Notes under the pieces: model-generated
Databases searched by the model: none
Told to the model about the DNA's origin: nothing
Seen by the model: the letters and a program-made list of their open reading frames with translations, nothing else
Assembly: GCA_001303695.1 (NCBI GenBank)
Contig: LJUC01000001.1
Location: forward strand, 1 to 50,768
Origin: Phycisphaerae bacterium SM23_30
GTDB lineage: Bacteria; Planctomycetota; Phycisphaerae; Sedimentisphaerales; SM23-30
Length of the DNA stretch: 50,768 nucleotides
Direction: 5' to 3'
Shown: positions 11,705 through 31,608 of the stretch, piece after piece
Layout of the letters: the number at the start of each line of letters is the position of its first letter
How positions within the stretch are numbered: the stretch's first letter is position 1
Made by a program: the position numbers and the translations under genes

Positions 11705-12350
11705 GATTGTACCTCAGTATTACAAAACCGGCTAGTTATTCCTATTTTCTACCAAATCCTTTTGAATAACAATAAAATCATCTTTGGCAGGCTGCTTCCT
11801 AGTGCGCGGTTAGGCGTTCAACCACCCCGCTTTATAAATATAATAACACAGGGATATAATCTTTGTCAAGGATTTACTTATCTACTTTATTTATAAGGAG
11901 TTATAGGGCGTTAGGGCCGCGTAATATCTCCATTGCGCCCGGCAAAGATTCCAGGTGGGGTAAAACTTTGAGATATAAATATGAATCTGAGATCCTAAGT
12001 TACGACCTGAGCTGCAGGCGATTTGTATCAACGTATGTTGTTTAATATCAACATCTTATAACAAAATTGCCTGAAATCCTTGATATTGCCGGCACAAATC
12101 AAATTGGAGATATTATTCCCTTGGCAAATATTATAGTAAATCTTATTGATTTCAATAACTTCTTTGGTTAGAATAATTTATAGTATGAAGGCGGCTGGAA
12201 AATGTCACCTGCTTTCTTATCGTATAAAGTATATATATGCAGAATTTAATCAGGTTCTGATTTAAATCTATGGTTCTGCTCATTTGCCGGAAGATCCTTA
12301 GGATTGATCTATATTAATTAGTATCATATTTGCGTTCAGGAGGCTCTAAG

Positions 12351-16394: not shown

Positions 16395-16486
16395 CTCATT
16401 TATAATATGATGAGGTTGGAGCTATCAAAATAGTGCCGTCAGAGAGATTTTAAGCTCGGCACATCCAATCCTTTTGTCAATAAACT

Positions 16487-17833
16487 TCAGAAAGCTTTCG
16501 CATCTGTGGGGATATTTTGTTGCATCATTTCTAAAAAGCTTGCTACCAACTCGGGGTCCATGGTGGTGCCTGCTTCGGCGCGCATAATCTCCATGGCCTC
16601 GGCGGTTGTCATAGCGGCCCGGTAAGAACGGGTCGAAGTGAGGGCGTCCCACACGTCGGCGATCTGCAAGATGCGTGCGTGCAAGGGAATTTGCGAGCCT
16701 TTTAATCCGTCGGGGTAGCCGGAGCCGTCGAAATGTTCATGATGATGTTTTACGGCCGGCAGAATATCCTGTAAGGCCAGGACCGGTTTCAGCACTTGAT
16801 AGCTTTTTACGGGATGGGATTTAATATGAGCAAATTCTTCTTCCGTCAATTTACCTGTTTTGGAGAGAACCTCGTCTTTAATCCCGATTTTACCAATATC
16901 GTGGAGAAGGCCCGCCCATTGTAAGATTTTTACTTGCTGAGGGTCATACCCAAGACGCAACCACAACCGGCAGGCCATTTCGGCTACCCGCGTGGAGTGG
17001 CCGCTGGTGTAAGGGTCTTTGGCTTCGGTGGCTCTGACCAGAGAAGCGATAGTTTGGATGGAAGCTTCCTGCAGCTTTTGGGCGAAAATGACGTTGCCTA
17101 TTACCGCGGAACCCATCTGGGCCAGGGAAGCCCCTAAATTCATATCTGCCGCTGCAAAAAAGGCCTGATCTTCGGAGCGGACGAATAATAAAGTTCCGAA
17201 ATCTTCGTTCCCGCTCTCTCCGCCTACCAAACGTAAAGCCAATACATCACCTTTGCCGTCACTGTCGTGATGAGAAACGTTTCGGTTGCCGATCATACTG
17301 ACTAAACGGTCGGTTTTGGCTTCAACCAATGTCTGTAAGGCTGTTTCGTGTTGACGGAGAAAATCCCGGGCGGTGATAATTTTGTCACCTTGGGCCGGAC
17401 TATAAACCACATTTTTGTCGAGATCAACCTGATCGGGGGGCAGGGAGAATTTAGGGGCCAAGGGACCCAGATAAATATCAAATCGGCTGTCCACCGCCCG
17501 GCTGATCCCCCGAACCAACGCCAGCAGCGCCTGCTGCACCGTCTTGGCGCCGGTTACTTTGGCCGGGACGGAAAAAGCGATGTTCAATTGTTCATAGCAC
17601 CTTAACAATTCTTCGGTCAACTGCCTGTTGGATAAATCAACTTGTTCGAACAAATCGATAATTTGAGCCGCCTGTCGCGCCAATGACCGAGGTAATTGGG
17701 CTATTACATCATCCTGAGCGGTTAACGAACGTTGATTGGCTGGTGCCGACAGCGGAAGATTTTGCTCCGGCTGTTTTATTCCATCGGCCAGCCCCAGCAG
17801 GCATCTCATAAGTTTTTCTTTGGCTTGGCTCAT
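16487..17833 (-). CDS. HD-GYP domain protein (predicted c-di-GMP phosphodiesterase) with N-terminal sensory (GAF-like) region
   Basis: HDIGKIGI and HHEHFDGSGYPDGL motifs. Its start overlaps the stop of the upstream receiver gene by 1 nt (TGATG). Confidence 0.85.
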   Translation of the reverse strand: MSQAKEKLMRCLLGLADGIKQPEQNLPLSAPANQRSLTAQDDVIAQLPRSLARQAAQIIDLFEQVDLSNRQLTEELLRCYEQLNIAFSVPAKVTGAKTVQQALLALVRGISRAVDSRFDIYLGPLAPKFSLPPDQVDLDKNVVYSPAQGDKIITARDFLRQHETALQTLVEAKTDRLVSMIGNRNVSHHDSDGKGDVLALRLVGGESGNEDFGTLLFVRSEDQAFFAAADMNLGASLAQMGSAVIGNVIFAQKLQEASIQTIASLVRATEAKDPYTSGHSTRVAEMACRLWLRLGYDPQQVKILQWAGLLHDIGKIGIKDEVLSKTGKLTEEEFAHIKSHPVKSYQVLKPVLALQDILPAVKHHHEHFDGSGYPDGLKGSQIPLHARILQIADVWDALTSTRSYRAAMTTAEAMEIMRAEAGTTMDPELVASFLEMMQQNIPTDAKAF

Positions 17834-18204
17834 CAGGAAGCTGACTGCGTGACGCTTAGTTTCTCAATTGCTTCCGACAAAAGCGCCGGACTGAACGGTT
17901 TGCTGAAGAAGTGCACTCTGGAAGAGGTGAATTGCTTTTTCAAGTCGGCGTCGTCGCAGCGGGAGGTCAGAATAATGATCAGTTCCGGCGGGCAGGGCAG
18001 TTTAAGAACCGCATTAACCAGATCAACGCCGTTCATTAAAGGCATGTTGACGTCGGTTATCAGAACGTCAAATTTATGTTCTTTTATGCGGGCCAGTGCT
18101 TGTTCTCCATTTTGAGTGCTCTGGACGTGATGACCTTTTTGCTCGAACCACATCCTAATGACAAGACAAATATTGGAGTCGTCGTCTGCTAGCAGTATAT
18201 TCAT
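17833..18204 (-). CDS. single-domain response regulator (CheY-like receiver)
   Basis: MNILLADDDSN...FDVLITDVNMPLMNGVDL carries the receiver acidic pocket and phospho-acceptor Asp context. 123 aa, translationally coupled to the HD-GYP gene. Confidence 0.85.
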   Translation of the reverse strand: MNILLADDDSNICLVIRMWFEQKGHHVQSTQNGEQALARIKEHKFDVLITDVNMPLMNGVDLVNAVLKLPCPPELIIILTSRCDDADLKKQFTSSRVHFFSKPFSPALLSEAIEKLSVTQSAS

Positions 18205-18526
18205 AATATTCAGGTCCTATATATATTTTGGTCCGCGTTCCGACACGACGATTTCACTCGGACTACAAACCGAATCGACTATCTGTCGGCGTCCCTTAAG
18301 TAAGATATTGGGGTGACAGTGTGGTTTTAGGTTGGCGCTGGGCCCTTCTGGGAAAATAAAGTATGAAAAAATCGCTCCTCTCGGCCCAATCGCCATCTTG
18401 ATTAGGTCGATAGGCAATATGAGTATCTATATCAAGGGCAAGGAAGGAGAAATAACTCTGATAGTTGGCGTATAGCAACTGCCGCTAAATAATGCGGCAG
18501 GAACCGGATGCCTATCACCCGGTTTG

Positions 18527-20224
18527 ATGAATTGGGAGGAAAAAACCTTGGAAAATTCATCTGGATCCGAAACCAAGGCTTCTCCAGAATCCGTAAGTTG
18601 TGGAAGCCGACCGGCAGAAAGAAGATTTGCCGGTAGCAGCGGCAGCGGTGTCATTATATTCATCAATTTTATATCAGTGCTGTTGCTGTCCCTGATGTTA
18701 ATTACTTATAGGACTAATTGGCAGCTATTTCAATTTCCGCCTGGATTATCCCAGGGTTTGGCGTGCGTAGCTTTGACAATGACCGGTGTCTCGACCATTA
18801 TATATATTAGGGTGCTTCGTTATCGCCGTAAATTTAAAGCCATTGAAACCAATCTTTTGGCCATCTGCCGAACGGACGATTTTGAACAGGTTCTGCAACA
18901 AATGGAACCGTTTCCTGTGGGTTGGCGGATGCCTGACTTCGGTCGAGGATGGAATAATCTGGTCGGAGCTGTCGATCAGGTGCGGCACGGATGGCAACTC
19001 AAACAGGCGGAAAACAGCATGGGCCAATTCCTCTGCAGTTACGACGCCCAGAGGCTGCTGGGGCTGCTTGATTCATTATCGGACGGTATTGTTTTAGCCG
19101 ACGCCGACGGGAAGATTATTTTAGCCAATCGCGCCTGCGAAGGTAAGGTCAGCCGGCGTCTCAGCGAGTTTATCGGCGGTTCAATTACGGAGCTTTTTGA
19201 CGACCCCAACAGCAAAATCATTCTGGAAGAACTGATCAACTACAATAACCATCATACGAACGCCTCTTTTGAAGTGCTTGTTCCGCCCTGCCGGTCAACA
19301 GCAGCAGGGTCTGATAAAATCATCGAAGATTCAGAAGAACCAAATCAGAATCCCGCGCCTTTTAGTCCGGAAAATGTCGTCCGTTCCGGAGGCACCATAT
19401 TATGGATTTGTGGTCATAGATTGGCCGGGGAACGAGAAAACAGCGATATACTTCTGACCCTTCGGGATATCACCCAACGAAAGATAAGTGATGCCGGACA
19501 AGAAGCTTTTATCGCCCATGTCAGTCACGAAATGCGCAGTCCTTTGACCAACATTCGAGCGTACGCGGAGACGCTGCTCTCCGATATGGTGTTGGACGCC
19601 CGGACTCAGAAGGAAGCCTTCAATGTGATCAATGAGGAAACCTCCCGCTTAATCCGCCTGGTGAATGACGTTTTGGATTTATCCAGCATGGAGACCGGGA
19701 CGCTGACGCTGGACAAAGGAGAAGTGGCGCTGGATCGCCTCATTCGTCAGTGTGTTAACGACGTTCGCGCCGCCGCCAGTAGCAAGAAGATCACGCTGCA
19801 AAGTAATTATCATCCCAAGCTGCCTAACTTGCAGGCCGACCGCGAGAAACTGGCCCTGGTAATCAACAACATTCTTAGCAACGCCATTAAGTACACGCCG
19901 GAAACAGGTACGATTTTTATCGAAACCAACGTCGATGACCGTTATGTATATATCAAGGTTACGGACACGGGGATGGGCGTCGCCGAAAAAGATAGGGATA
20001 AAATTTTCGACAAATTCTATCGAGTACAGCGCCAGGAGACCGCCGATATTCCGGGCAGCGGTTTGGGATTATCAACCGCCAAAGAGATAGTCGCCTTGCA
20101 CGGCGGCGCCATCAACGTCATCAGTGAATTGAACAAAGGCACGGAGATGGAAGTTAAACTGCCGTTAACGACGACCGGTCCGGTGCTGGGCCCGGCGGCG
20201 AACCATAGCGCAGAAAGAGAATAA
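18527..20224 (+). CDS. membrane sensor histidine kinase (TM - PAS - HisKA - HATPase_c)
   Basis: ORF 18524..20224 (TTG immediately followed by ATG 18527). TM segments present. H-box HVSHEMRSPLTNI, N-box NNILSNAIKYTP, G-boxes DTGMGV and GSGLGLS. Confidence 0.85.
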   Translation: MNWEEKTLENSSGSETKASPESVSCGSRPAERRFAGSSGSGVIIFINFISVLLLSLMLITYRTNWQLFQFPPGLSQGLACVALTMTGVSTIIYIRVLRYRRKFKAIETNLLAICRTDDFEQVLQQMEPFPVGWRMPDFGRGWNNLVGAVDQVRHGWQLKQAENSMGQFLCSYDAQRLLGLLDSLSDGIVLADADGKIILANRACEGKVSRRLSEFIGGSITELFDDPNSKIILEELINYNNHHTNASFEVLVPPCRSTAAGSDKIIEDSEEPNQNPAPFSPENVVRSGGTILWICGHRLAGERENSDILLTLRDITQRKISDAGQEAFIAHVSHEMRSPLTNIRAYAETLLSDMVLDARTQKEAFNVINEETSRLIRLVNDVLDLSSMETGTLTLDKGEVALDRLIRQCVNDVRAAASSKKITLQSNYHPKLPNLQADREKLALVINNILSNAIKYTPETGTIFIETNVDDRYVYIKVTDTGMGVAEKDRDKIFDKFYRVQRQETADIPGSGLGLSTAKEIVALHGGAINVISELNKGTEMEVKLPLTTTGPVLGPAANHSAERE

Positions 20225-20260
20225 GCCTGGGCGGGACATAAATTTTCGAGGTGAGAAGAC

Positions 20261-21379
20261 ATGAAAAAACTTCGGCAAAACAACCCCCAGGAAAGTGATT
20301 ATCTACGCGGCATCCTCAACGAACTAAGCCTGATGCTAAGCAGCAATGACCTTAAAGAGCGCTATCAATGTTTTATCAGAGTGGTTGAAAGCAGTCTCGA
20401 ACATGCTCTGGGTTACTGTGGCGTCACTTTGTGGTGTCCTGACGAAGAGTGTGAAAATCTTATCGAATGTGTCATTGAGCCCTCGCGAACGAAAAGTCGC
20501 TTCCCCGCCGGCGCCGCCCCCTTACGCGTTCCCTGCCGCGTGCCTCTCGACTCGCAGGTTATTCGCGATTCATTGTTAACGGGAGAACCGTATCTGGGCC
20601 TGGTAAAAGGGGCCAACCAAGTGATGTTGGGCCGAACCCCGGAAGCGACTTTACAGTGTGACGCCTGTATTCCCTTATACCGCAACTACGGCCAACCTCT
20701 TCTTATCAGTGTAGAGCGGATCGAAGAAATGGGGCGAAAGTGCCGTCGTGAAGATTTCCAGGCGTCGGTGCAATTGATAAACCTTTTTTGGAAGCAACTG
20801 CAGAGCACCAACCAGCGGCAATGGCTGGTCGAACACGATCAGACCAGCGGCGCCCTGCGCGACGAAGTCTTTCTAAGACAGGGGCAAACATGGGCAAATA
20901 CTTATCAACGGCGTGACGAACCTTTTACTGTTGTGGTTATAACCGTCCGCGGTTTTCGCAGTATTTTTACGGGTAATTCCCAACAATGGCGCCGCCTGAG
21001 TAAAGTGGTAGGGCGGTGCCTGAACAAGGTTCTGCGTGAAAAGAGTTCGAAATATTTGTTGGGGAAAATGGCCGACGACGTTTTTGCCCTGATGTTGCCG
21101 AGTAAAGATAATTTCCTCACCGATGCGGTTATGCACACTCTGGCGGACCGCTTTGGTCAGGAGATGGTTAGCGATAAGGCTATTGAAACATTGGACATCT
21201 TAGCCGTCGATATTCAGTGGTCTATCGCCGACCATAACTCCTATGAGGGTAACCTGGAAATATTACTTAATAAGATATACCGACGCTTGTTCAGCCGTAA
21301 CCATGAAGATCATAAACACACTCATCGAATTATCCTGAATGAACAGAGCGGCACGGTGGAAATCCAGCCATGCAAATAA
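20261..21379 (+). CDS. GAF-like / degenerate GGDEF-like domain protein (predicted catalytically inactive)
   Basis: The C-terminal half follows the GGDEF-domain layout. DQTSGALRDEVFL corresponds to D.LTGL.NR..F; FTVVVITVRGFRSI to the DxD-FK strand; GKMADDVFALMLP to R-GGDEF-avlLP. The GGDEF motif is replaced by MADDV and no RxxD I-site is present. This is a by-eye alignment only. Confidence 0.5.
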   Translation: MKKLRQNNPQESDYLRGILNELSLMLSSNDLKERYQCFIRVVESSLEHALGYCGVTLWCPDEECENLIECVIEPSRTKSRFPAGAAPLRVPCRVPLDSQVIRDSLLTGEPYLGLVKGANQVMLGRTPEATLQCDACIPLYRNYGQPLLISVERIEEMGRKCRREDFQASVQLINLFWKQLQSTNQRQWLVEHDQTSGALRDEVFLRQGQTWANTYQRRDEPFTVVVITVRGFRSIFTGNSQQWRRLSKVVGRCLNKVLREKSSKYLLGKMADDVFALMLPSKDNFLTDAVMHTLADRFGQEMVSDKAIETLDILAVDIQWSIADHNSYEGNLEILLNKIYRRLFSRNHEDHKHTHRIILNEQSGTVEIQPCK

Positions 21380-21705
21380 CCGTTAGTAATGAAGGGGCGG
21401 TAACCGTCGTTAAGCCCGTGGGGCCGATCACGGCGGGAGAACTGGAGGAACTGGACAAAAAGCTGGATAGTTTAAACCGAAATTGGACCAAACGCGTAGT
21501 TATAAACATGAGCGAAGTTGCTTTTATTGACAGCGCCGGTTTGGAACTTTTCATCCGTTATCAGAAGCAGCTAGACGAACGGGGATTAAAACTGAAATTA
21601 TGCGGTATGAACGAAATAACCCAGAAGATTTTTGATATAACTCAGCTTTCGCGTTTTTTTGAGATATTTGCCGATACCACCGGCGCAGTACGGAGTTTCT
21701 TGTGA
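21370..21705 (+). CDS. STAS domain protein (anti-sigma-factor antagonist / SpoIIAA-like)
   Basis: 111 aa. VINMSEVAFIDSAGLELFIRYQK is the typical STAS core. Overlaps the upstream gene by 10 nt and the downstream ATPase start by 4 nt (GTGA). Confidence 0.8.
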   Translation: MQITVSNEGAVTVVKPVGPITAGELEELDKKLDSLNRNWTKRVVINMSEVAFIDSAGLELFIRYQKQLDERGLKLKLCGMNEITQKIFDITQLSRFFEIFADTTGAVRSFL

Positions 21706-23456
21706 AACTATTATCACAAACCATCAAAATAGGCCAGATACTGATTCAGCAAGGCCACTTAACCGAAGGGCAGCTTCAAGAGGCTCTGAAGCGACAAAAG
21801 AACACGCGTAAGAAGCTCGGGGAGTTGCTGGTAGAGGAAAAGATTGTCGAGGAGTCGGTGATGCTGGAATGCTTGTCGGAGCGTCTGGGTCTGCCGGCCG
21901 TTAAGCTGCGGCCGGGATTAATCGATCCCTTAGCGGTGGACATCATCAGCAAGGATCTGGCTGAGCGTTATACCATCATACCGATGTTCAAGGTGGAGCA
22001 GACCCTCACGGTGGCTATGGCCGAACCGCAGGCCCTGCTGGTAGTGGATGATCTGGAACAATCCACGGATTTGCAAATTCAACCGGTGATCGCTCTGGCC
22101 GGCAATATCAATGAGTTCATTAAAAAATACTACGCCCAAAACGTAAAAATGGATAGTTTTGTCGCATCCCTGGAAGATGCCCAGGTGCAGGTGGTGGAAA
22201 AAGAAGCCTATGATGAAGAAGCGATTATTGATTTATCGGAAATCTCCGAAGGCAGCCCCGTGGTCAACCTGGTGAATATGAGCCTCATGCAGGCGGTTAA
22301 GGAAGGCGCCTCCGATATTCATGTCGAACCCGATGAAAATTTCGTCCGAATACGTTATCGAATTGATGGGGTACTGCATGACCTGATGACGCCGCCGAAA
22401 GAATGGCACGCGGCAATCATCTCGCGCATCAAGGTTATGGGACGCATGGACATCGCGGAAAAGCGAGTTCCTCAGGAAGGGCGAATTCACATCAGAGTCG
22501 AAGATCGAGAAGTGGACGTGCGCCTTTCATCGATGCCGACCATTCTCGGGGAAAAGGTCGTCATGCGAATTTTGGATAAAAGCAACCTGCAACTGAACCT
22601 GGACAAGCTCGGCTATGAAATACAGATGGTACGGGCCCTCAAACGGATGTTGACCCGCCCCCACGGTCTGTTTTTAGTGACCGGTCCCACCGGCAGCGGC
22701 AAAACCACCACCCTGTATTCAGCCTTGGACCTGCTCCGCAACAAAGATCGCAACATTATCACCATCGAGGACCCGGTGGAGTATCAGTTAGAACTGGTTA
22801 ACCAAATCCAGGTGCATGAAGCGGTAGGTTTGACTTTTGCCCGTACTTTAAGGTCGGCATTGCGTCAGGATCCGGACATCATCATGGTTGGCGAGATTCG
22901 TGACGAAGAGACGGCCAAAGTGGCCATTCAAGCGGCCTTGACCGGGCATCTGGTGCTGAGCACGCTACATACCAACGATAGTCCCGGCGCCGTTACTCGG
23001 CTGCTGAACATGGGTTGTGAACCTTATCTGCTGGCGTCCTGCCTGGTAGGCGTCGTGGCCCAGCGGTTGCTGCGCACCATCTGCCCCAAGTGTAAAACAA
23101 CCTATTTCCCCGAGGAATCGGTGTTGGATGAAATCAATTGGCAGGGACCCCGCAACCGCGCTTTTCATCGAGGTGAAGGTTGTCAGCTATGCCATGACAG
23201 CGGCTTTAAAGGACGACGCGCCATTTGTGAAGTGCTGGAAATGACTCTGCCAATTCGGGATCTGATATTAACCCGCCCCAGTGCCGATGAAATTAAAGCC
23301 CTGTTGAAAAAAGGCCCCTGGCGTGACCTCCGGCAGGCCGGCATGCTCTGCGTCGAACAAGGGATAACCAGTATCGAGGAAATGATGCGCGTCTGCTTCA
23401 TCGAAGAAGAATCGACTAGTGATAAAAAAGAACTCGTCGCCGAAGTATCCGAGTAA
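21702..23456 (+). CDS. gspE: type II secretion / type IV pilus assembly ATPase (GspE/PilB/MshE family) with MshEN-like N-terminal domain
   Basis: Walker A GPTGSGKTTT. Walker B IIMVGEIRD. His box GHLVLSTLHTND. Tetracysteine CPKC...CQLC. The N-terminus carries two 24-aa MshEN-type motifs separated by a 5-aa spacer (residues 9-61). Confidence 0.9.
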   Translation: MKLLSQTIKIGQILIQQGHLTEGQLQEALKRQKNTRKKLGELLVEEKIVEESVMLECLSERLGLPAVKLRPGLIDPLAVDIISKDLAERYTIIPMFKVEQTLTVAMAEPQALLVVDDLEQSTDLQIQPVIALAGNINEFIKKYYAQNVKMDSFVASLEDAQVQVVEKEAYDEEAIIDLSEISEGSPVVNLVNMSLMQAVKEGASDIHVEPDENFVRIRYRIDGVLHDLMTPPKEWHAAIISRIKVMGRMDIAEKRVPQEGRIHIRVEDREVDVRLSSMPTILGEKVVMRILDKSNLQLNLDKLGYEIQMVRALKRMLTRPHGLFLVTGPTGSGKTTTLYSALDLLRNKDRNIITIEDPVEYQLELVNQIQVHEAVGLTFARTLRSALRQDPDIIMVGEIRDEETAKVAIQAALTGHLVLSTLHTNDSPGAVTRLLNMGCEPYLLASCLVGVVAQRLLRTICPKCKTTYFPEESVLDEINWQGPRNRAFHRGEGCQLCHDSGFKGRRAICEVLEMTLPIRDLILTRPSADEIKALLKKGPWRDLRQAGMLCVEQGITSIEEMMRVCFIEEESTSDKKELVAEVSE

Positions 23457-23460
23457 AATT

Positions 23461-24708
23461 ATGATCGTTAATTATCAAGCCATAGATCGCACCGGAGCCT
23501 TGGTCAACGACAATTTGGTTGTCGAAGATGCATCTCAGGCTTATGGACAACTGACCCGCAACGGATTAATACCGGTGCGCATCACCGCCCAGAAATCCAA
23601 ACCCATTTGTCAGGCTCAGGGCGGATCTGGGCTTTTTAGTCGATGGGGATTTTCTCGGGTGCCGCGAAAGGACCGGGCCCGCCGAAAGGAACTGCCTTTT
23701 TTCACGGAGCAAATGGCCATTTTACTGGAAACCGGCACCCCAGTGGCGGCTTCCCTTAGTGCTTTAGAACGGCAATTAACCGATCCCCATTGGCGTTTAC
23801 TGGTGAGCCAACTAAAGAAAAAAGTATTGGAGGGGGGGTCATTGGCCTCCGCCGTAGCCGCCCACCCTAAGGTTTTTGATCCGATATACAGCAGCATGAT
23901 CGCGGCCGGGGAAGCCTCCGGTACTCTTTCCACTATATTAAATCGGTTGGCGCAGCTTTCCCGACAATCAGATCGCCTGCGCCACAAAGTTATTTCTGCC
24001 ATGATATACCCCGCCTTGCTTACTTCTATCGCTTTTACGGTGATGGGAGTGCTTATCTTTTTTGTACTGCCGCGTTTTGCCGTCATTTTTGAAGAAATGA
24101 GTGTAAACCTGCCGGGCACTACTAAAGCGCTGTTAACGATATCCAGGCTGGTTCGCAGCCATATTCTGGTAACGATACTCTCATCGGCAATGGTGGTTGC
24201 GGGTATTATCATCTTTTTGCGCAGCCAAAGAGGTCGGCGATTTGTTGCCCGCAATGTGTTGAAACTGCCCATTTTCGGCTCTCTCGTATCGTCGATCCAT
24301 AATGCCCGGATATGCCGATTGATTGGTTTGCTAATCGAGTCTAGTGTTCCCCTTTTAGAAGCGCTGGAATTAACCTGTTCTTCCGTCAAACACTATATGT
24401 ATGCTGAACTGTTGAAAAAAATACACCAGAGCGTTCTCAACGGTCAGTCCATGCATGAGGTCATGTCGGAAAGCAAGCTGGTGCCGGCCAGTATCACCCA
24501 GATGATTCACACCGCCGAAGAAAACGCCCAGGTAGGTAGAGTTATGACGCTGCTGGCGGATCATCTCGACGACCGTAATGAAACCCAGATCGGAACCTTA
24601 ACGAGTATTATGGAACCCGTGATCCTTATTTTCATGGGTATAATTATCGGTATGGTGGCTATATCTTTGGTGCTGCCGCTCTTTGATCTATCTCGAATTT
24701 CCGCATAG
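23461..24708 (+). CDS. gspF: type II secretion / type IV pilus platform protein (GspF/PilC family)
   Basis: ORF 23419..24708, with ATG 23461 just after the gspE stop. About 415 aa, three TM segments and the duplicated T2SSF-type cytoplasmic domain layout. Confidence 0.85.
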   Translation: MIVNYQAIDRTGALVNDNLVVEDASQAYGQLTRNGLIPVRITAQKSKPICQAQGGSGLFSRWGFSRVPRKDRARRKELPFFTEQMAILLETGTPVAASLSALERQLTDPHWRLLVSQLKKKVLEGGSLASAVAAHPKVFDPIYSSMIAAGEASGTLSTILNRLAQLSRQSDRLRHKVISAMIYPALLTSIAFTVMGVLIFFVLPRFAVIFEEMSVNLPGTTKALLTISRLVRSHILVTILSSAMVVAGIIIFLRSQRGRRFVARNVLKLPIFGSLVSSIHNARICRLIGLLIESSVPLLEALELTCSSVKHYMYAELLKKIHQSVLNGQSMHEVMSESKLVPASITQMIHTAEENAQVGRVMTLLADHLDDRNETQIGTLTSIMEPVILIFMGIIIGMVAISLVLPLFDLSRISA

Positions 24709-24719
24709 AGATCAACATA

Positions 24720-25982
24720 ATGCCACATAGGATCGGAAGAAAATATTCAGCCATTGGCCTGGATTTGGGCCGAACCGCCATCCGTGGCGTACAATTGATG
24801 CGACAGGGAAAATCACTGAATATCCATGCCGCCTTGGAAGTTAGTGTGGTGGAGAGTTACGGTTCACAGTTCGCATCTTTTGTTGAGCCTGAAGTCGATA
24901 AGTCTTGCCTTGCCGATAAACTTAAACGTCTTTTGGGGCATGGTGATTTCATAGGTCGAGATGTAATGGTGCACTGTCCGGCCGACAAACTGGATCTCCG
25001 TCCGGTGAAATTGCCGGCCGCCGGCTCCATACTACCCCGACAGGCGGTTTTAGGAGTCTTGCGTTTGCAAATGGGCAGTCACCTGCCCTTTCCCGTTGAA
25101 CAGGCGGTGTTTGATTACTTTCGGATGGATAGTGACCCTGCCGGCAATACCCTTCGAGTAATGGCCATAACAGCCGACGGCGCATGGATCAAACAACGTA
25201 TCAAATTAGTGGAATCTCAGGGATTACATTGCCTCGGGGTGGATGCCCTGCCCTGTGTTTTGGCCAGAGTCAGCCTTGGGGCCGACTCAAGCAAGGAAAA
25301 AGAGTTGAATCGTGAAATTAATAATTGTGATAGTCAGGATGATGAAATATCAACAACCGAGATTCTTATTGGCATTCTGGATATAGGTTTTTCCGGCAGC
25401 ACCCTGGTTGTTCGTAATAGTCAAAATCCCATTTTCTGTCGCCGGTTTTCCCTGGCCGGACTGGAGATGAACAGTATTTTGACTCAGCGTCTAGGAGTGA
25501 ATTTCGGCATAGCAGAAAATCTCAAACGGAGCTATGGACTTGATTGCCAAACCCGGCAGTTACGAACTACCCGCAACGGCTCCGACCAGGCGGCTTCCAT
25601 GGCGGCCGAGGCGAATGACAAAGTGGCGACGGGACCGGTAGTAGCAGTTGAAAAAACGGATGAACAAAAGGCGGAAGTCGCCAAAACTATTTACGCCGCC
25701 CTCCAGAGCGAGTTAGGCCATTTTGTCAAAGGATTAACTCGCTCACTCAACTACGTCATCACCGACCATGGCAGCGCCCGACTGGGAAAAATTGTGCTCT
25801 GTGGTTCGGCCGCTCATACTAAAAACTTGGAAAAGTTTTTAACACAGCAGTTTGAACTGCCGGTGGAAATAATTCGGCATCCTTTGTTAACGGAAATTGC
25901 CGAGAATCTGCCTGCCTCTCGGGCCCAGGTCGGTAGTTGGGCTACCGCGCTGGGCTTGGCTTTGTCAAAGGAGATGGCTTGA
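24720..25982 (+). CDS. pilM: PilM-like actin-fold pilus assembly protein
   Basis: IGLDLGRTAIRGVQL and ILDIGFSGSTLVV phosphate-binding-type motifs of the actin/Hsp70 fold. Sits immediately upstream of PilN- and PilO-like genes. Confidence 0.75.
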   Translation: MPHRIGRKYSAIGLDLGRTAIRGVQLMRQGKSLNIHAALEVSVVESYGSQFASFVEPEVDKSCLADKLKRLLGHGDFIGRDVMVHCPADKLDLRPVKLPAAGSILPRQAVLGVLRLQMGSHLPFPVEQAVFDYFRMDSDPAGNTLRVMAITADGAWIKQRIKLVESQGLHCLGVDALPCVLARVSLGADSSKEKELNREINNCDSQDDEISTTEILIGILDIGFSGSTLVVRNSQNPIFCRRFSLAGLEMNSILTQRLGVNFGIAENLKRSYGLDCQTRQLRTTRNGSDQAASMAAEANDKVATGPVVAVEKTDEQKAEVAKTIYAALQSELGHFVKGLTRSLNYVITDHGSARLGKIVLCGSAAHTKNLEKFLTQQFELPVEIIRHPLLTEIAENLPASRAQVGSWATALGLALSKEMA

Positions 25983-25983
25983 T

Positions 25984-26658
25984 ATGGTAGCGGTGAATCT
26001 TACTCCTGATGAATTTAAGACCGCCCAAAAGCGGCGGCAACGCTTGCGTTTTTGGGTATTGATGCTGCTGGCGGTTGCCATAACGGCGGGGGGCTGGGCA
26101 ACTATGATATATTTCGATTATCGGCGGGCGAATCAGACCCTGCATAGAATCACCCGGGAATATCAAGACCTGCAACATACTATTAAAGCGCTCGGTCAGG
26201 TGCGGAATCGGCTTGACCTTTGGCAGGATCGTATCGCCTTGCTTAATGAATTAAATCATTACCATGATTTTGTCAGAGTCACTGACTACCTCACGCAGCA
26301 TAGTCCTGATTTAATATATTTAGAGCAAATGAAATTCTGGCGGCCTGATAAGCCGCAAAGCACGGACCAACCCAAAACTCAATCTAAAGCGGCGCATATG
26401 TTTATATTGAAACACGGTGCCGAGGGCGAGGCTGTCGCGGCGACCGACACGAATATCGAACCCATTATGATATCTCTAAAAGGAAGATCGGTCAATTATC
26501 AGGCGGTGGCCGATTATTTGCAGATGCTAAGCTCGGCCGACATCATTGCCGGGGCCCAGTTAAAATACAGCCGTCGTCAATCCGCCTTATCATCGGAAAC
26601 CGGCGAAATCGTCGATTTTGAAATCGAGGCCCGGTTGCTTCCGATGCTTTCTCCATAG
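25984..26658 (+). CDS. pilN: PilN-like bitopic pilus/secretion alignment protein
   Basis: ORF 25897..26658, with ATG 25984 one nt after the pilM stop. N-terminal MVAVNLTPDEFK...RLRFWVLMLLAVAITAGGWA matches the PilN NLLP + TM pattern, followed by a coiled coil. Confidence 0.6.
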   Translation: MVAVNLTPDEFKTAQKRRQRLRFWVLMLLAVAITAGGWATMIYFDYRRANQTLHRITREYQDLQHTIKALGQVRNRLDLWQDRIALLNELNHYHDFVRVTDYLTQHSPDLIYLEQMKFWRPDKPQSTDQPKTQSKAAHMFILKHGAEGEAVAATDTNIEPIMISLKGRSVNYQAVADYLQMLSSADIIAGAQLKYSRRQSALSSETGEIVDFEIEARLLPMLSP

Positions 26659-26659
26659 G

Positions 26660-27214
26660 ATGTGGTATATGTTGATATGTAAAAAACCAAAAATTTTTGA
26701 CGTTGATCTTTACGCCCTTGCCGCCTTTGTCGGCTTTTGCGCTCTGACGTGGTTGGCGCTGATTAAGCCTCTGAATGAAAAAGTATCCCAGCAGCATCTG
26801 GATCAGGAAGAACAAAGGCTAAATAAAGAATCGGCACAAACCAAGCTGGTAAACCTCCAAGAATTGACCCGTCAAGAACAGGTTTTGGCCTCGAGGTTGA
26901 AGCAAACCAGAAACATTCTGGGTGATAATGCCGCAATACCTGAAGCGATAAGAAATATGGAACGTCTGTGCCGGCTTTGCGGGCTGCGCCTTGATGAAAT
27001 CAATCCGGGAGAAGATACTTTCACCCAACATTTCCGCAAAACCGGCTTGCATCTGCGCCTGAGCGGCACCTTCCCCCAGGGACAGGCGCTTTTGACTCAA
27101 ATCAGAGAAGAACTGTATTACGTGCGCATTAAATCCATGTTAGTGACTATGAAAGATACCCAGCTAAACCTGTGCGAGATAGTTATCGATTTGGACATTT
27201 TCAGTGCCCGGTGA
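26660..27214 (+). CDS. pilO: PilO-like bitopic alignment protein
   Basis: ORF 26618..27214, with ATG 26660 one nt after the pilN stop. TM segment LYALAAFVGFCALTWLALI, coiled coil and a small C-terminal domain. Assigned by position and topology. Confidence 0.5.
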   Translation: MWYMLICKKPKIFDVDLYALAAFVGFCALTWLALIKPLNEKVSQQHLDQEEQRLNKESAQTKLVNLQELTRQEQVLASRLKQTRNILGDNAAIPEAIRNMERLCRLCGLRLDEINPGEDTFTQHFRKTGLHLRLSGTFPQGQALLTQIREELYYVRIKSMLVTMKDTQLNLCEIVIDLDIFSAR

Positions 27215-27270
27215 CATTTGGAGATGCTCTGTTAAAAACTAAGAGCATCATATAATAAGGTCGCATTACC

Positions 27271-27888
27271 ATGACGAAATCACGAAAGATTTACGTCGGC
27301 ATCTTAATAACGGCGATCAGCGCCCTTATATTTGATAAAGCGGTATTGCGCCCTTCGGTGAGCGAGCCTCAAACTACCCTGGCGCGCCCCGCCCAATCCC
27401 CAACGCCGGACACTAACGTCGCACCTCCGGTTGAGAAACCTCTCGACCAGCAATTCCCCTTTCCTGTTTCTCCCGTTCTATCTGCTACTACTTCCCTGTC
27501 TGCCGAAACAACGTCGGGGACGGCCAATAATTCAACCCTTTCCCTTAAAGAAGCAGTGCATAAAGTACTGCACGCCATAGGGAGCGGGCTTGCCCCGCCG
27601 GAAGTTCCCCATGAAACCAGAGATTTGTTTGCTGCTTCTGATGAATTTCTATCGGCCCTTCGTAACAATTCCCCGCTCCAGGACGATCAAAAAGCACCTC
27701 CAATACCCACCATGACCTTGCACTTGACGGGTATATTAATCGGGCCTGAAAATCGCTGCGCTGTAATTAATAACGAAGTGCTGTTTTGCGGTCAGAATAT
27801 AGGACCCTATCAAGTTCTGGAGATATATCCCGATCAGGTCATACTGGCGATACAATCGGAACGTATAACCTTGTTTCTTGATAAATAA
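27271..27888 (+). CDS. PilP / GspC-like protein (TM anchor, Pro/Ser/Thr-rich linker, small beta domain)
   Basis: N-terminal TM helix. Low-complexity linker rich in P, S and T. C-terminal TLHLTGILIGPENRCAVINNEVLFCGQNIGPYQVLEIYPDQVILAI resembles the PilP/GspC HR-domain pattern. Confidence 0.4.
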   Translation: MTKSRKIYVGILITAISALIFDKAVLRPSVSEPQTTLARPAQSPTPDTNVAPPVEKPLDQQFPFPVSPVLSATTSLSAETTSGTANNSTLSLKEAVHKVLHAIGSGLAPPEVPHETRDLFAASDEFLSALRNNSPLQDDQKAPPIPTMTLHLTGILIGPENRCAVINNEVLFCGQNIGPYQVLEIYPDQVILAIQSERITLFLDK

Positions 27889-28106
27889 CTTGCCTCGGAC
27901 CTTCGGTCTTTAGCCCTAACCTCCTGCGGTCGCCATTAATATTGGTATTGACGAGGTTTTTGCAAAACTTCGGTATTGATATAAATCTGGCGGCGGTGAT
28001 ACCCGATATAAAATAACGGTTCCTGTGAAATAATATGCCTACTATCGTTTTAGCAAATTCAGACATTTGATGAATATAAGAAAAAGCGAATAAAGGAGAA
28101 ACTCAT

Positions 28107-28640
28107 ATGTTCCAAAGAAATCCCCGGCGGAGGGCATTCAGCCTGATTGAGTTGGTGATAGTCATCGTAATTTTAGGCATCATCGCGGCTATTGCCATCC
28201 CCCGAATTGGCTCGGGAAGTAGAAACGCCGGCGAGTCGGCCCTGCGGGCCAACCTGGCCAGCCTCCGCAACGCCATTGACTGGTACTATGGCGAGCATCA
28301 CAACGTCTATCCGGGCGCCAATCCTGACGGCCTGGGGGGCGGGGCCGATTCGGAAGCCGCTTTTGTTAGTCAGTTGACCATGTACAGCGACGCAAATGGC
28401 AATGTTTCCGCTAGTAAAGATCCTGCCTTTCCCTTTGGGCCTTACATTCGCGTTGACATTCCCGAATTGCCCGTAGGGGCTAATGCCGGCCAAAATACGG
28501 TTACGGTGGTGAATCAGGCCGGTCCTCTGGTAGCCAATCCTGGCGACGGTAACGGCTGGCTCTTTAACGCCAACACCGGGCAGTTCATCGCCAATTCAAC
28601 GGATGCCGGCAGTGACGGTGTCACTTATGATTTGTACTAA
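28107..28640 (+). CDS. gspG: major pseudopilin (GspG-like, prepilin-type N-terminus)
   Basis: AAGGAG at 28093-28098. N-terminus MFQRNPRRRA/FSLIELVIVIVILGIIAAIAIPR. GspG-like LASLRNAIDWYYGEHHNVYPG. Followed by its own terminator. Confidence 0.8.
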   Translation: MFQRNPRRRAFSLIELVIVIVILGIIAAIAIPRIGSGSRNAGESALRANLASLRNAIDWYYGEHHNVYPGANPDGLGGGADSEAAFVSQLTMYSDANGNVSASKDPAFPFGPYIRVDIPELPVGANAGQNTVTVVNQAGPLVANPGDGNGWLFNANTGQFIANSTDAGSDGVTYDLY

Positions 28641-28697
28641 TCAGACTTAGTTGGCGAATTAATACACTTATTTGTGGAACTCATGACCTAAAGTCCG

Positions 28698-28746
28698 AAA
28701 ACAGGTCCTGGAGCGGCGGCTGTTTGCTGTCCGGGACCTGTTTTTT
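28698..28746 (+). terminator. rho-independent terminator after the major pseudopilin gene
   Basis: Stem CAGGTCC (28702-28708) pairs with GGACCTG (28734-28740) and can extend inward. Followed by TTTTTT (28741-28746). Confidence 0.55.
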
Positions 28747-28790
28747 CTATGTTTAACCAAACTTGTGCAAAACTTTAATTTTTATCCATA

Positions 28791-29342
28791 ATGTTTAATA
28801 CTGCGAAAATATTTTTTATCAAACCAAAAATCAGGAGCGGCTTTTCCCTGGTGGAACTGGTGATAAGCGCTTTCCTTGTTGCCCTCATCGCCGGAGCGGT
28901 CAGCTTGGCCCTGTATCAGTCCCATCAGCACAGCGACCGGACCCGCATCGACCTGATCCGGTTACAGCGAACCAACAAAATCCTGCAAACCATAGCCGAA
29001 GACTTGCGCTGGGCCCGGGAAATTCTGCAATTCGATGAACAAACGATAAGTTTCAGCACTCCTGATCCTGATAATATCGGTGCCACCTTGGAAATTACTT
29101 ATCAGTGGAATGAGTACCAATACGCCCTGTATCAATCGGTCGAGGGAGATTACCCCGTCTTGGTGGCGGAAAATGTTAACTTCTTTATTTTCCAGGCTGA
29201 TGTAGTGGAAGAAAAGTTGGGCCCCAAGACATATTCTTATCTCCGCGGCGTGACCGTAACCATACAGATAGGACCCCATGTTAACGACGGTTTGCAGCGA
29301 TACATCGAGTGCTATAACCGGCCCGTTTATCAACCGGAATAA
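28791..29342 (+). CDS. minor pseudopilin (prepilin-type N-terminal cleavage/methylation domain)
   Basis: Leader MFNTAKIFFIKPKIRSG / FSLVELVISAFLVALIAGAV, with Glu at +5. Confidence 0.7.
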   Translation: MFNTAKIFFIKPKIRSGFSLVELVISAFLVALIAGAVSLALYQSHQHSDRTRIDLIRLQRTNKILQTIAEDLRWAREILQFDEQTISFSTPDPDNIGATLEITYQWNEYQYALYQSVEGDYPVLVAENVNFFIFQADVVEEKLGPKTYSYLRGVTVTIQIGPHVNDGLQRYIECYNRPVYQPE

Positions 29343-29344
29343 TA

Positions 29345-29824
29345 ATGATTAATAATCTACATGACTATCCTTTTAACCGTCCGGGTATGTCATTGGCCGA
29401 ACTGATCATCGTCCTGTGCATCACGGCGTTGTTGGCTTCCATTGCCACCCTGACTTTTAGCGGCATGACCGGTCGAGCCCAACTGCAAAGCGCCGCCGAT
29501 CGCCTGATAAGCGATTTGCGCCTGGTCCGCGACCAGGCGCAGAGTGATAAAAAAACCTACACCCTCCAAATTAAACCGGGTCTGCTGAGCTATGAGGCGC
29601 CAGGTGTTTTTGATATTAATAACGAGCGAGATATTTCCGTGAACCTGGGGGATAGTTACTATCGAATTAACGCCATGATTATTCAACTGGATAATGGCAG
29701 CAGTATCTCCTTTGACAAGCGAGGTAAACCCTCTTCGGTCGGCAATATAATCCTGCGCCGTGGTTTAGATAAAATTACCATAGTGATAAACAAGGTAGGT
29801 AGAATTGAGCAAATTGATCCCTAG
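29345..29824 (+). CDS. minor pseudopilin, GspH/FimT-like
   Basis: RPG/MSLAELIIVLCITALLASIA prepilin motif. ADRLISDLRLVRDQA resembles the GspH/FimT helix. Starts 2 nt after the upstream stop. Confidence 0.65.
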   Translation: MINNLHDYPFNRPGMSLAELIIVLCITALLASIATLTFSGMTGRAQLQSAADRLISDLRLVRDQAQSDKKTYTLQIKPGLLSYEAPGVFDINNERDISVNLGDSYYRINAMIIQLDNGSSISFDKRGKPSSVGNIILRRGLDKITIVINKVGRIEQIDP

Positions 29825-30419
29825 AAACAGCAATATTCGCCGTAAACTTGTCGGGACAGGATTATCATATGTCGAGGTCCTGCTGGCCTCGGTTATTATG
29901 GCGGTTTTATTGGTATCAGCGGTTCGGATTTTCGGTAATATCGGTCGTTCCAGCCGAATGGTTGCCGATCAGGATAGCGCCGCGAGGCTGGCCTTGGAAA
30001 TGATCCAGGAAATAAAACAGCTCCCCTATAAAGATCCCGCCTCCGCCATCCAGGGTGATTTGGGTCCCGAAACCGACGAGAAAGGCTCGTACCGCAGCTT
30101 ATTTGACGACGTCGATGATTACCACGGCTGGTCGGCATCTCCCCCCCAGGACCGTACCGGAGAGGACCTCATCCCGTATTCCCACCTTACCCGCAACGTA
30201 AAAGTTTATTTCGCAGATGCCGGCAACTTCAAACAACCGGTCCTCTCTGACGAAGGTTTCAAAGCCGTCGCTATAACTATCAGTCAAGCGGATAAAACCC
30301 TCGCCCAGCAGACTTATGTTATTGCCGATGTAGCGCAAATTACTATTGATAAATCCTTGCCGACACCAAAACCAACCTCACTACCGCCGGATGATGGTGA
30401 TAATGATATCAATGAGTAA
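29805..30419 (+). CDS. minor pseudopilin (GspI-like size and N-terminus)
   Basis: TTG start. LVGTG/LSYVEVLLASVIMAVLLV prepilin-like motif with Glu at +5. Overlaps the upstream gene by 20 nt. Confidence 0.6.
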   Translation: MSKLIPRNSNIRRKLVGTGLSYVEVLLASVIMAVLLVSAVRIFGNIGRSSRMVADQDSAARLALEMIQEIKQLPYKDPASAIQGDLGPETDEKGSYRSLFDDVDDYHGWSASPPQDRTGEDLIPYSHLTRNVKVYFADAGNFKQPVLSDEGFKAVAITISQADKTLAQQTYVIADVAQITIDKSLPTPKPTSLPPDDGDNDINE

Positions 30420-31608
30420 ACATAAAAGAGCTAGCATTTACATCTTAACCCTGGCTTCAGCGATGGTGCTGGTGTCGCTGGTTTTAGGCCTGTCTTACTT
30501 GGTCATGCAGTCGCGCCGCAGCTTACGCACCAACGCCGAAATCGACCGGGCCCGCGTTTATGCCGAACTGGGTATCTACCACGCCCTGCATTTTACCGCC
30601 GTCGAACCCAACTGGCGCCAGCTTCTTCCCAGCGGAATATGGCTGCAGGACGTCACCGTTGATCAGGCCACCTACTCTGTTTCCGGGATCGATCCGGTAG
30701 ATGGAAATCTGGCCAATAATCAGGTAGATCCGGTGGATTTGATCTGCACCGCCGCGGTCAACGGCGCCCAACATACCCTTCAGGTTCAGGCCCAAAACGC
30801 CCCGTCGGAACTCTTGAAATATGCCCTTGCCGCCGGCGGCTTAATCGACATCAATAATCACGCCCGCATCGAAGGTGATGTATTCACCAACAGCAATATT
30901 GATAAATCCGGCGGCGATACCTGGGTCTTCGGCGACGCTGAAGCGGTGGGGTCTATTCATGAAACCGCCAACATCACAGGTGAGATAACACCCGGCGCCG
31001 CCGCCAAAAACTTCCCCGACGACCAGGTCCTGGTTAATTATTATCTGAACCATGCCACACCAATTCCCTTTATAAACCAAATCCAGGAAGTTCTAATAAG
31101 CCCGATCTCGAATCCCCTTGGCCCGATCAATCCCGAGGGACTCTATATAATCAACTGCACCAGCCAGAAAATCGTCATCCGCAATTGCCGCATCGTAGGC
31201 ACCCTGGTCCTGGTAAATCCCAAAAGCGACAGCGAAATCAAAGACGCCATTAACTGGCAGCCCGCTCTGGCCGATTACCCGGCCCTGGTGGTGGTGGATG
31301 GCGCCGTAAAGATTCAACCCAATATGGACCTCGATGAGAATAATCTCAAAGTTGATTTTAATCTGCCGGGTGAGGATGGCCAGGGCGAAAATTATCAGAC
31401 TTTTCCCAACCTTATCTTTGGTCCGATATACTGCCGCGGCAATTTAGAACTGGGTAACTCTGTTAACGTCCAGGGTCCGGTTATCAGCACCGGCTTTCTC
31501 GTCTTAAAAGATTACGCCAAAGTCACTATCGTGCCGAATTATTATCATCACCCTCCAAAATATTACCGTGAAACCTACCTCGCCCCCATCCGCGGCACCT
31601 GGAAATAG
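30412..31608 (+). CDS. PilX/GspK-like large minor pseudopilin (no Glu+5) with repetitive beta-rich C-terminal region
   Basis: ORF 30346..31608. ATG 30412 overlaps the upstream stop (ATGAGTAA). MSKHKRASIYILTLASAMVLVSLVLGLSYLV resembles the PilX_N/GspK hydrophobic N-terminus and lacks the cleavage-site Gly/Glu pattern. Confidence 0.5.
   Translation: MSKHKRASIYILTLASAMVLVSLVLGLSYLVMQSRRSLRTNAEIDRARVYAELGIYHALHFTAVEPNWRQLLPSGIWLQDVTVDQATYSVSGIDPVDGNLANNQVDPVDLICTAAVNGAQHTLQVQAQNAPSELLKYALAAGGLIDINNHARIEGDVFTNSNIDKSGGDTWVFGDAEAVGSIHETANITGEITPGAAAKNFPDDQVLVNYYLNHATPIPFINQIQEVLISPISNPLGPINPEGLYIINCTSQKIVIRNCRIVGTLVLVNPKSDSEIKDAINWQPALADYPALVVVDGAVKIQPNMDLDENNLKVDFNLPGEDGQGENYQTFPNLIFGPIYCRGNLELGNSVNVQGPVISTGFLVLKDYAKVTIVPNYYHHPPKYYRETYLAPIRGTWK

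Follow-up and report, generated by a model that had tools for sequence, protein, structure and literature searches.

A putative c-di-GMP signalling cassette at the head of a predicted pilus/secretion-type filament operon in a family of Phycisphaerae

Control of pilus and secretion ATPases by cyclic diguanylate (c-di-GMP) through an N-terminal MshEN domain is established, as is signalling by a local sink and its receptor, and fusions of MshEN with REC and HD-GYP domains were already noted by Wang et al. (PMC5013675). In Xanthomonas, phosphorylated RpfG binds GGDEF proteins independent of cyclase activity, a PilZ adaptor then contacts PilT/PilU, and the resulting RpfG::GGDEF::PilZ::PilT/U complex needs neither cyclase activity nor c-di-GMP binding (PMC3749722). 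The architecture of PmGH (GAF-HD-GYP) is distinct from that of RpfG in the census of Galperin and Chou (bioRxiv 10.1101/2021.11.05.467447). Here we describe a six-gene locus that shares features with each of these systems. It lies in a 50,768-nucleotide stretch of DNA (positions 1 to 50,768 of contig LJUC01000001.1, our contig C253; hereafter the window) from Phycisphaerae bacterium SM23_30, whose metagenome-assembled genome comprises 4.0 Mb and is 78.5% complete. We refer to the six genes, which encode an HD-GYP protein, a receiver, a PAS histidine kinase, a GAF-like protein with a degenerate GGDEF fold, a STAS protein and a PilB/GspE-family ATPase, as the cassette.

We propose that the cassette stands at the head of a type IV pilus/type II secretion-like filament operon that is conserved in one Sedimentisphaerales-like family of Phycisphaerae, and that it would work in the following way. 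The membrane PAS kinase would phosphorylate the single-domain receiver, and the phosphorylated receiver would modulate the GAF-HD-GYP phosphodiesterase made from the same message; the phosphodiesterase would lower c-di-GMP near the machine, and the MshEN domain of the ATPase would read the c-di-GMP level and set filament assembly, the c-di-GMP-bound ATPase being presumably the active form by analogy with MshE and PilB. The dead GGDEF and STAS proteins would have no enzymatic role and would act as adaptors or scaffolds tying the sink to the receptor, and the cyclase supplying c-di-GMP would be encoded elsewhere in the genome. Taking place and mechanism together, we give this reading an even chance of being right. 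The genes and the evidence for their assignment are as follows.

16487..17833, minus strand: predicted GAF-like + HD-GYP phosphodiesterase, 448 amino acids (Pfam HD_5, 1.9e-43, and AlphaFold2 model)
17833..18204, minus strand: single-domain receiver (REC), 123 amino acids (Pfam Response_reg, 1.9e-22)
18205..18523, no strand: intergenic region from which the REC/HD-GYP genes and the kinase operon diverge (sequence read)
18524..20224, plus strand: membrane-anchored PAS histidine kinase, 566 amino acids (Pfam HATPase_c, 1.4e-26; HisKA, 1.8e-18; PAS_9, 2.3e-06)
20261..21379, plus strand: predicted GAF-like + degenerate GGDEF protein, 372 amino acids (AlphaFold2 model, Foldseek and hhalign)
21370..21705, plus strand: STAS/anti-sigma-antagonist-type protein, 111 amino acids (Pfam STAS, 8e-19, and TIGR00377)
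21702..23456, plus strand: PilB/GspE-family assembly ATPase, 584 amino acids (Pfam T2SSE, 5.4e-141, and MshEN, 5.3e-16, at residues 62-146)
23419..31608, plus strand: machine genes for GspF/PilC, PilM, PilN, PilO, a T2SSB/C-like protein, two N_methyl pseudopilins, a GspH-like protein and two further small proteins (Pfam and NCBIfam)

Compared with RpfC/RpfG of Xanthomonas, the locus likewise holds what would be a kinase-controlled HD-GYP protein, a GGDEF-fold partner with dispensable catalysis and a pilus ATPase as target (PMC3749722), the roles in the window being inferred; moreover, its receiver and HD-GYP protein match complementary parts of NF053512, a model of the fused response-regulator phosphodiesterase (positions 1-113 and 168-360, respectively). 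It differs in encoding the receiver by a gene of its own, in the GAF-like sensor that its HD-GYP protein carries, in the full degeneracy of the GGDEF-like partner, in having a STAS and not a PilZ protein as candidate adaptor and an assembly-type and not a retraction-type ATPase as neighbour, and in that all of the components are encoded together.

The genes are tightly coupled translationally. A reading of this DNA made earlier from its letters only (the sequence-only reading) had described the receiver and HD-GYP genes as coupled by a one-nucleotide overlap and transcribed divergently from a PAS histidine kinase, and both statements held: in TGATG a single base serves both the receiver stop and the HD-GYP start, position 17833 being common to both genes, and the strands and the Pfam PAS-HisKA-HATPase_c matches agreed with a divergent kinase gene across a gap of about 320 bp. 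The genes named in that reading were all confirmed, but the STAS gene at 21370-21705 had been left out. It overlaps the GGDEF-like gene by 10 nucleotides and the ATPase gene by 4, its stop and the GTG start of the ATPase gene overlapping in GTGA. A promoter and terminator scan of 16300-24000 gave a site count no higher than in shuffled sequence and was thus uninformative on operon boundaries.

The cassette arrangement was kept on the contigs of all eight homologues that we compared (GGDEF-like protein 41-53% identical). In each of these relatives the HD-GYP and REC genes lay on one strand and the genes for the PAS kinase, GGDEF-like protein, STAS protein, MshEN-T2SSE ATPase, T2SSF, PilM, PilN, PilO and pseudopilins on the other, and the genes beyond the HD-GYP gene differed in every one of the eight. 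We then surveyed presence and absence with one representative genome per species, covering 401 genomes across the phylum and 25 of the window's family. The GGDEF-like family occurred in 2 of the 401 phylum-wide genomes, the window's own and one of its family, and was not found in the 376 other genomes of the phylum. Within the family it occurred in 14 of 25 genomes, and exactly these 14 also had a STAS orthologue, in every case next to it; an HD-GYP orthologue occurred in those 14 and in 4 fragmented metagenome-assembled genomes. The remaining 7 genomes had none of the three genes, and they include three near-complete ones (one to four contigs) of one genus.

The same order recurred at much greater distance. 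The GGDEF-like protein has a remote sister family (17-19% identity), which shows the architecture transmembrane-GAF-altered GGDEF, carries the motif (S/D)DDRF and keeps an RxxD I-site, and at its loci (L021:87-3396, L022:332-4596 and L023) the genes for REC, HD-GYP, altered GGDEF, STAS (111 amino acids) and MshEN ATPase are co-directional in that order. The ATPase of the sister cassette begins with the 24-5-24 motif, again ending in R or H. As RxxD is kept in the sister family, the I-site was seemingly lost on the branch leading to the window's family. The order kept over deep divergence, together with the shared presence and absence, indicates that the cassette is old and is inherited or lost as a unit, and these sequence comparisons support the view that the six genes form a functional unit.

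The ATPase has an intact core in translation (Walker A GPTGSGKT, Asp box, Walker B, His box and tetracysteine) and falls between two equivalogs: unlike the described MshE, PilB and PilF ATPases, it scores under the cut-offs of both PilB (613.9 against 675.65) and GspE (588.1 against 630.25) in NCBIfam. Like them, it carries a full N-terminal MshEN domain on a T2SSE ATPase. This domain occupies residues 9-146, the Pfam MshEN model (PF05157) spanning the C-terminal subdomain only (62-146), and includes two 24-residue motifs set 5 apart at 9-61 (9-32, 33-37 and 38-61), beginning at residue 9 as in MshE of V. cholerae (5HTL). Residues 9-61 were exactly those quoted in the sequence-only reading, and its listed substitutions were correct; one more must be added, K for R at position 1 of copy 2. 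When residues 1-150 were compared with the PDB by phmmer, all matches were to MshEN/GSPII domains, in end-to-end alignments, including T. thermophilus PilF, M. xanthus PilB (3jc8), Geobacter PilB and V. cholerae MshE (5htl), residues 9-144 of the last aligning with ATPase residues 9-143 at E 1.6e-14; no chain named GspE, XpsE or EpsE was among the 16 matches. The model NF053729 (53 positions, NCBI "c-di-GMP_motif, MshE-related", cut-off 38) matched ATPase residues 9-60 with 57.8 bits for the full protein and 60.8 bits for the N-terminal fragment. On the same model the proven binders PilF GSPII-B and GSPII-C scored 61.1 and 59.8 bits and the proven non-binder GSPII-A 52.7 bits, so that the score of the window ATPase is binder-like. 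We concluded that the N-domain, judged by its sequence, is a member of the MshEN/GSPII family and not a generic N1E domain.

The 24-5-24 pattern is more than chance would give. When all 11,538 open reading frames of the genome were scored at 22 constrained positions, each allowed the relaxed set of residues given by Wang et al. 2016 (PMC5013675), the ATPase matched at 20 of 22. At least 20 matches in the 24-5-24 layout were reached by four reading frames, all PilB/GspE paralogues with the motif at residues 8-13, and the background maximum was 19. Of the 12 key contact positions, which read R/L/G/L/L/Q in either copy of the consensus, 11 were kept or conservatively replaced (K9, I10, G11, L25, L29, Q32, K38, L39, G40, M54 and L58), the sole real change being Q61 to R; 10 of the 11 were identical or conservative in all nine orthologues, and position 54 varied among M, V and I. 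Half-site 1 was invariant in kind in the nine orthologues (K/R, L/I/M, G, G18, L25, L29 and Q32). The Lys at motif position 1 is harmless, because PilF GSPII-B, a high-affinity domain, also has Lys there (K167) and binds c-di-GMP at 6 nM, whereas K167R weakens binding (PMC11731258). Residue 19 of the ATPase (21756-21758) is His in 7 of the 9 orthologues and Tyr and Glu in the other two, a clade-specific feature. The genome encodes seven full-length PilB/GspE proteins with MshEN-like N-termini, the window copy and paralogues on contigs C199, C232, C113, C263 and C293 (two copies). Two of them, C263 and C293_4321, match 21 of the 22 motif positions and are nearer the c-di-GMP consensus than the window ATPase.

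Several observations weigh against c-di-GMP binding by the ATPase and against the proposed circuit. Neither copy matches the strict consensus (R/K/L)LGxx(L/V/I)(L/V/I)xxG(L/V/I)(L/V/I)xxxxLxxxLxxQ: copy 1 fails at H19, a hydrophobic position that follows the first turn Gly, and copy 2 at K47 (the turn Gly) and R61 (the Gln that bonds ribose and phosphate). Here the window ATPase differs from MshE, PilB and PilF; H19 and K47 count as two structural deviations beyond the contact change at 61. Copy 2 also carries M54 for Leu, and each copy misses the authors' relaxed motif at one position. The turn Gly and terminal Gln of copy 2 were absent from nearly all orthologues, and positions 47 (K/H/Q/G) and 61 (R/S/H) drifted among the nine; since they vary, neither of them is conserved for contact with the ligand. 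High conservation extends over the entire N-domain among orthologues, and conserved contact residues therefore say little on their own. All seven full-length PilB/GspE paralogues of the genome pass NF053729, at 44-64 bits. PilF GSPII-A, a proven non-binder, stayed inactive with a perfect motif restored, and work on it shows that an N-terminal helix cap and inter-subdomain contacts can silence even such a motif (PMC12002112). As GSPII-A passes NF053729, the model score reflects family membership and not ligand binding, and we rejected the match as proof of binding. Finally, the order from kinase to receiver to HD-GYP protein, and any protein contacts, are deduced from adjacency only. Taking the ATPase sequence as a whole, we consider c-di-GMP binding by the N-domain plausible and slightly favoured. 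The proposal of the sequence-only reading, that c-di-GMP gates the machine and that the local kinase, receiver and HD-GYP protein set its level, is supported in part.

The kinase and the receiver are, by their domains and key residues in sequence, a two-component system. The kinase has HisKA and HATPase_c domains, the H-box SHEMRSPL and two hydrophobic N-terminal segments in its translation; in the receiver, DDD, the acceptor Asp in (I/L)(T/S)DVNMP, LTS and KPF were conserved in nine orthologues. The HD-GYP domain occupies residues 267-429 of its protein and contains HDIGK and HHEHFDGSGYP, the motifs named in the sequence-only reading (Pfam HD_5, 1.9e-43). Its metal and motif residues E270, H279, H311, D312, H340, H364, H365, D393 and GYP were invariant in nine orthologues, a residue set that predicts a catalytically intact protein. 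Residues 1-260, which gave no Pfam match, comprise a long helix and a GAF-like domain. The AlphaFold2 model (predicted local distance difference test, pLDDT, 75) matched PmGH (4mcw) best, with E 1e-16 over 370 columns at 28% identity, and its N-terminal part also matched the GAF domains of PDE2/5/6, CodY and 3p01; this is fold-level evidence for a GAF-like N-domain. The protein thus resembles PmGH of Persephonella marina in combining a GAF-like N-domain with an HD-GYP domain and in having complete metal ligands, including the N-terminal Glu, and differs in its extra N-terminal long helix, in the coupling of its gene to a stand-alone receiver and in its place in a pilus/secretion locus.

The sequence-only reading had presented the receiver and HD-GYP genes as a split pair of domains that are usually fused in RpfG-type proteins. 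The complementary matches to NF053512 bear this out in part, but the HD-GYP protein has its own GAF-like domain, of the PmGH type, and is for that reason not simply one half of a split RpfG; we rejected that term as a full description. The two proteins are encoded by separate genes in the window and in all eight relatives, and thus do not form the one polypeptide of RpfG. Seven further HD-GYP-like paralogues are encoded in the genome, none of them in the window. A second, co-directional trio lies on contig C25 (1661-10959), with a kinase at 7366-8844, a receiver at 8873-9268 and a long-N-terminus (GAF)HD-GYP protein at 9295-10959, which is 42% identical to the window HD-GYP protein over residues 202-434. 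This trio lies just 3' of three pilin-like genes with GFTLIEILIVVIILGILAA-type N-termini.

The GGDEF-like protein (20261-21379) is beyond the reach of ordinary sequence searches. It had no Pfam match at E <= 0.01, lay outside the genome's four six-frame PF00990 matches and gave a weak match to NCBIfam DgcQ (E 0.0016), and its family profile had zero matches among PDB sequences at E <= 10. It has 49 homologues at 40-67% identity, some of them labelled "GGDEF domain-containing protein" by their source; the closest homologues of the window's genes carry the name Sedimentisphaerales bacteria (Planctomycetota, Phycisphaerae) at NCBI. The AlphaFold2 model, built with 24 family members, had a pLDDT of 78.5 (84-93 in the C-terminal domain), and Foldseek comparison with the PDB gave 75 matches at E <= 0.001 with GGDEF-domain proteins on top (E 1e-7 to 1e-4). 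Isolated GGDEF domains matched with a template modelling (TM) score of 0.6-0.75 per target, in agreement with the GGDEF fold suggested by the sequence-only reading, and the longest alignments were to the GAF/PHY-GGDEF proteins Dcsbis (4zmu, 371 columns), PelD and bacteriophytochrome cyclases. When 1.84 billion cluster representatives were searched with a profile, the GGDEF-like family proper was limited to 38 clusters; there followed, after a sharp drop, about 110 proteins matching the GGDEF-like part, ten of which match Pfam GGDEF (27-48 bits), most of them with weak GAF matches. With these GAF and GGDEF relatives as the next tier, the homology of the protein to GGDEF is reached in steps only. 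The GAF assignment of its N-terminal half is based on the full-length GAF-GGDEF matches in Foldseek together with weak Pfam GAF matches in the sister family.

Comparison by hhalign with the genome's own four canonical GGDEF domains was weak (E 0.005, probability 7%) and was used for register only. It placed K-M-A-D-D-V-F against R-Y-G-G-D-E-F, so that ADDVF stands at the place of GGDEF; the altered GGDEF domain of the sequence-only reading therefore stood, but its register, with MADDV in that place, did not. The segment GKMADDVFA is near-invariant among homologues. ITVRGFRSIFT lies at the place of IDxDxFKxIND, the metal-binding Asp and GTP-binding Asn being gone, and no RxxD I-site, which in PelD-like receptors lies five residues upstream of the degenerate A-site, was found in the window protein, which has SSKY there in the hhalign alignment; the position is variable across the 24 family members. 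Thus the protein, as modelled, is a GAF-like protein with a catalytically dead GGDEF domain in which the metal, GTP and I-site residues have all been lost. An N-terminal membrane segment of 60-90 amino acids is present in most orthologues and absent from the window copy and five others of the 24-sequence alignment; as it could not fit between the kinase stop at 20224 and the gene start at 20261, its absence is a real loss and not a miscalled start. The GAF-like half (20261-20800) has one invariant cysteine (C70), another that is nearly so (C136) and a third that is mostly conserved (C59), within the segments LWCPD, ECVI and CDACIPLYRxYGQP, and these cysteines may serve the sensor domain in binding a ligand or metal or in redox chemistry.

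PelD of P. aeruginosa likewise combines a GAF-like domain with a degenerate GGDEF fold, aligned at full length in Foldseek; N-terminal membrane segments occur in most orthologues of the window protein, as in PelD, and the window protein too adjoins the machine that it would regulate. PelD, however, is a c-di-GMP receptor through its I-site, whereas the window family lacks RxxD and the window copy the membrane segment. A PelD-like role as an I-site receptor was rejected because RxxD is absent. The four canonical GGDEF domains of the genome lie outside the cassette, and there is no active diguanylate cyclase in the cluster; c-di-GMP can therefore be made, its source being elsewhere in the genome. 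To call the c-di-GMP logic of the cluster "complete", as in the sequence-only reading, was thus an overstatement.

The STAS protein scored 66.8 bits with TIGR00377 (cut-off 53.45). It was 111 amino acids long in all orthologues, and its DS(A/S)GLE motif, in which the Ser is taken to be phosphorylatable by comparison with SpoIIAA Ser58, was invariant in nine. Pfam and profile scans of the window found no gene for an RsbW-type kinase or an RsbU- or PP2C-type phosphatase, the cognate partners in a STAS partner-switching module, and any kinase or phosphatase acting on the STAS protein must therefore work from elsewhere in the genome, where five SpoIIE-type phosphatase domains and one clear HATPase_c_2 (RsbW-type) kinase are encoded on other contigs. 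In P. aeruginosa the STAS anti-sigma antagonist HsbA controls motility and biofilm together with the active GGDEF cyclase HsbD, which it binds, and the HsbA kinase/phosphatase HsbR is encoded alongside. The window resembles this system in pairing a STAS protein with a GGDEF-fold protein, and differs in that its GGDEF-like protein is dead and no RsbW- or RsbU-type gene accompanies the pair. We may go further and suppose that the STAS and GAF/dead-GGDEF proteins are a hitherto unrecognised, dedicated cofactor pair of the assembly ATPase and would form, with the receiver-controlled GAF-HD-GYP protein, a machine-bound "signalosome", in which a phospho-switchable STAS protein and a dead cyclase fold couple the local c-di-GMP sink to the MshEN receptor. 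Such a module would be ancient in Phycisphaerae, since all five of these genes are found in the sister family as well, at 17-19% identity of the GGDEF-like protein. We put this forward as speculation that is unlikely to be right in full.

The main rival to the proposed circuit holds that the MshEN fold of the ATPase no longer binds c-di-GMP usefully, and that control would run, by analogy with Xanthomonas, through a physical complex in which the dead GGDEF protein partners the HD-GYP protein and the STAS protein links to the ATPase as an adaptor. In favour of such a complex, no catalytic or nucleotide-binding residue survives in the GGDEF-like protein, which is yet strongly conserved and translationally coupled to the STAS protein and the ATPase; the complex also fits the invariance of the GYP motif and the degeneracy of MshEN copy 2, with its variable positions 47 and 61, and it has a precedent in the HD-GYP::GGDEF::adaptor::pilus ATPase complex that is independent of enzyme activity (PMC3749722). 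The fully conserved catalytic centre of the HD-GYP protein, in contrast, argues that hydrolysis matters, and the MshEN motif is conserved throughout half-site 1 and over most of half-site 2. We regard control by contact without useful binding as possible, though rather doubtful; in any case, ligand and contact models are compatible with each other and not exclusive.

The HD-GYP protein might instead draw on the nucleotide pool of the whole cell, or have a different cyclic dinucleotide as its substrate, such as 3'3'-cyclic GMP-AMP (cGAMP), the clustering then reflecting co-expression with the machine and not a local sink-receptor circuit. Some HD-GYP enzymes do hydrolyse cGAMP (bioRxiv 10.1101/2021.11.05.467447), V-cGAP3 (5z7c) was among the structural matches of the HD-GYP model, and the seven paralogues and the second trio on C25 would suit such a role; but the best structural match was the c-di-GMP enzyme PmGH, and strict co-inheritance with ATPase-proximal genes, in an order kept over deep divergence, fits a dedicated role better. 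We judge this explanation improbable. That the signalling genes and the ATPase operon are mere neighbours without a functional link is very improbable indeed. The C25 trio does show that kinase-receiver-HD-GYP sets occur elsewhere in the genome, but that trio also adjoins pilin-like genes, and at the window locus the gene junctions overlap, the order is kept in 8/8 relatives with unrelated outer flanks, and the GGDEF-like and STAS genes have identical presence and absence across the 25 family genomes, with the HD-GYP gene in the same 14 and in the 4 fragmented assemblies.

Downstream of the PilO gene, the region from 27271 to 31608 encodes a weak T2SSB/T2SSC-like protein, two N_methyl pseudopilins, a GspH-like protein and two proteins without a family match. 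No match to a secretin, prepilin peptidase or PilT-type family was found among the large window reading frames scanned against Pfam, a scan that covered part of the window. On the HD-GYP side of the cassette, 6386-16394 encodes two very large exoproteins, one of 1772 amino acids with ASH/Ig-like repeats and the other a 1354-amino-acid S8 subtilase with BACON-like, Ig-like and dockerin modules. As this flank is not kept in relatives, synteny gives no support for the exoproteins as substrates of the machine.

Searches of the literature on STAS with PilB, on planctomycete MshEN and on pili or secretion in Sedimentisphaerales found no description of the cassette; each of its parts is of a known kind, and the combination is undescribed in the searchable literature. 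What is new is the fixed genetic package of a receiver-controlled GAF-HD-GYP protein, a fully dead GGDEF fold, a STAS protein and an MshEN ATPase, inherited as a block in a poorly known planctomycete lineage with seven such ATPases per genome. Every cassette part is soluble or includes a soluble domain, so that tests in vitro are possible without the organism in culture. If the proposed contacts are real, the cassette would be a clean natural example of one c-di-GMP circuit made specific for one of many paralogous machines, and would give a STAS protein a role other than in the control of a sigma factor.

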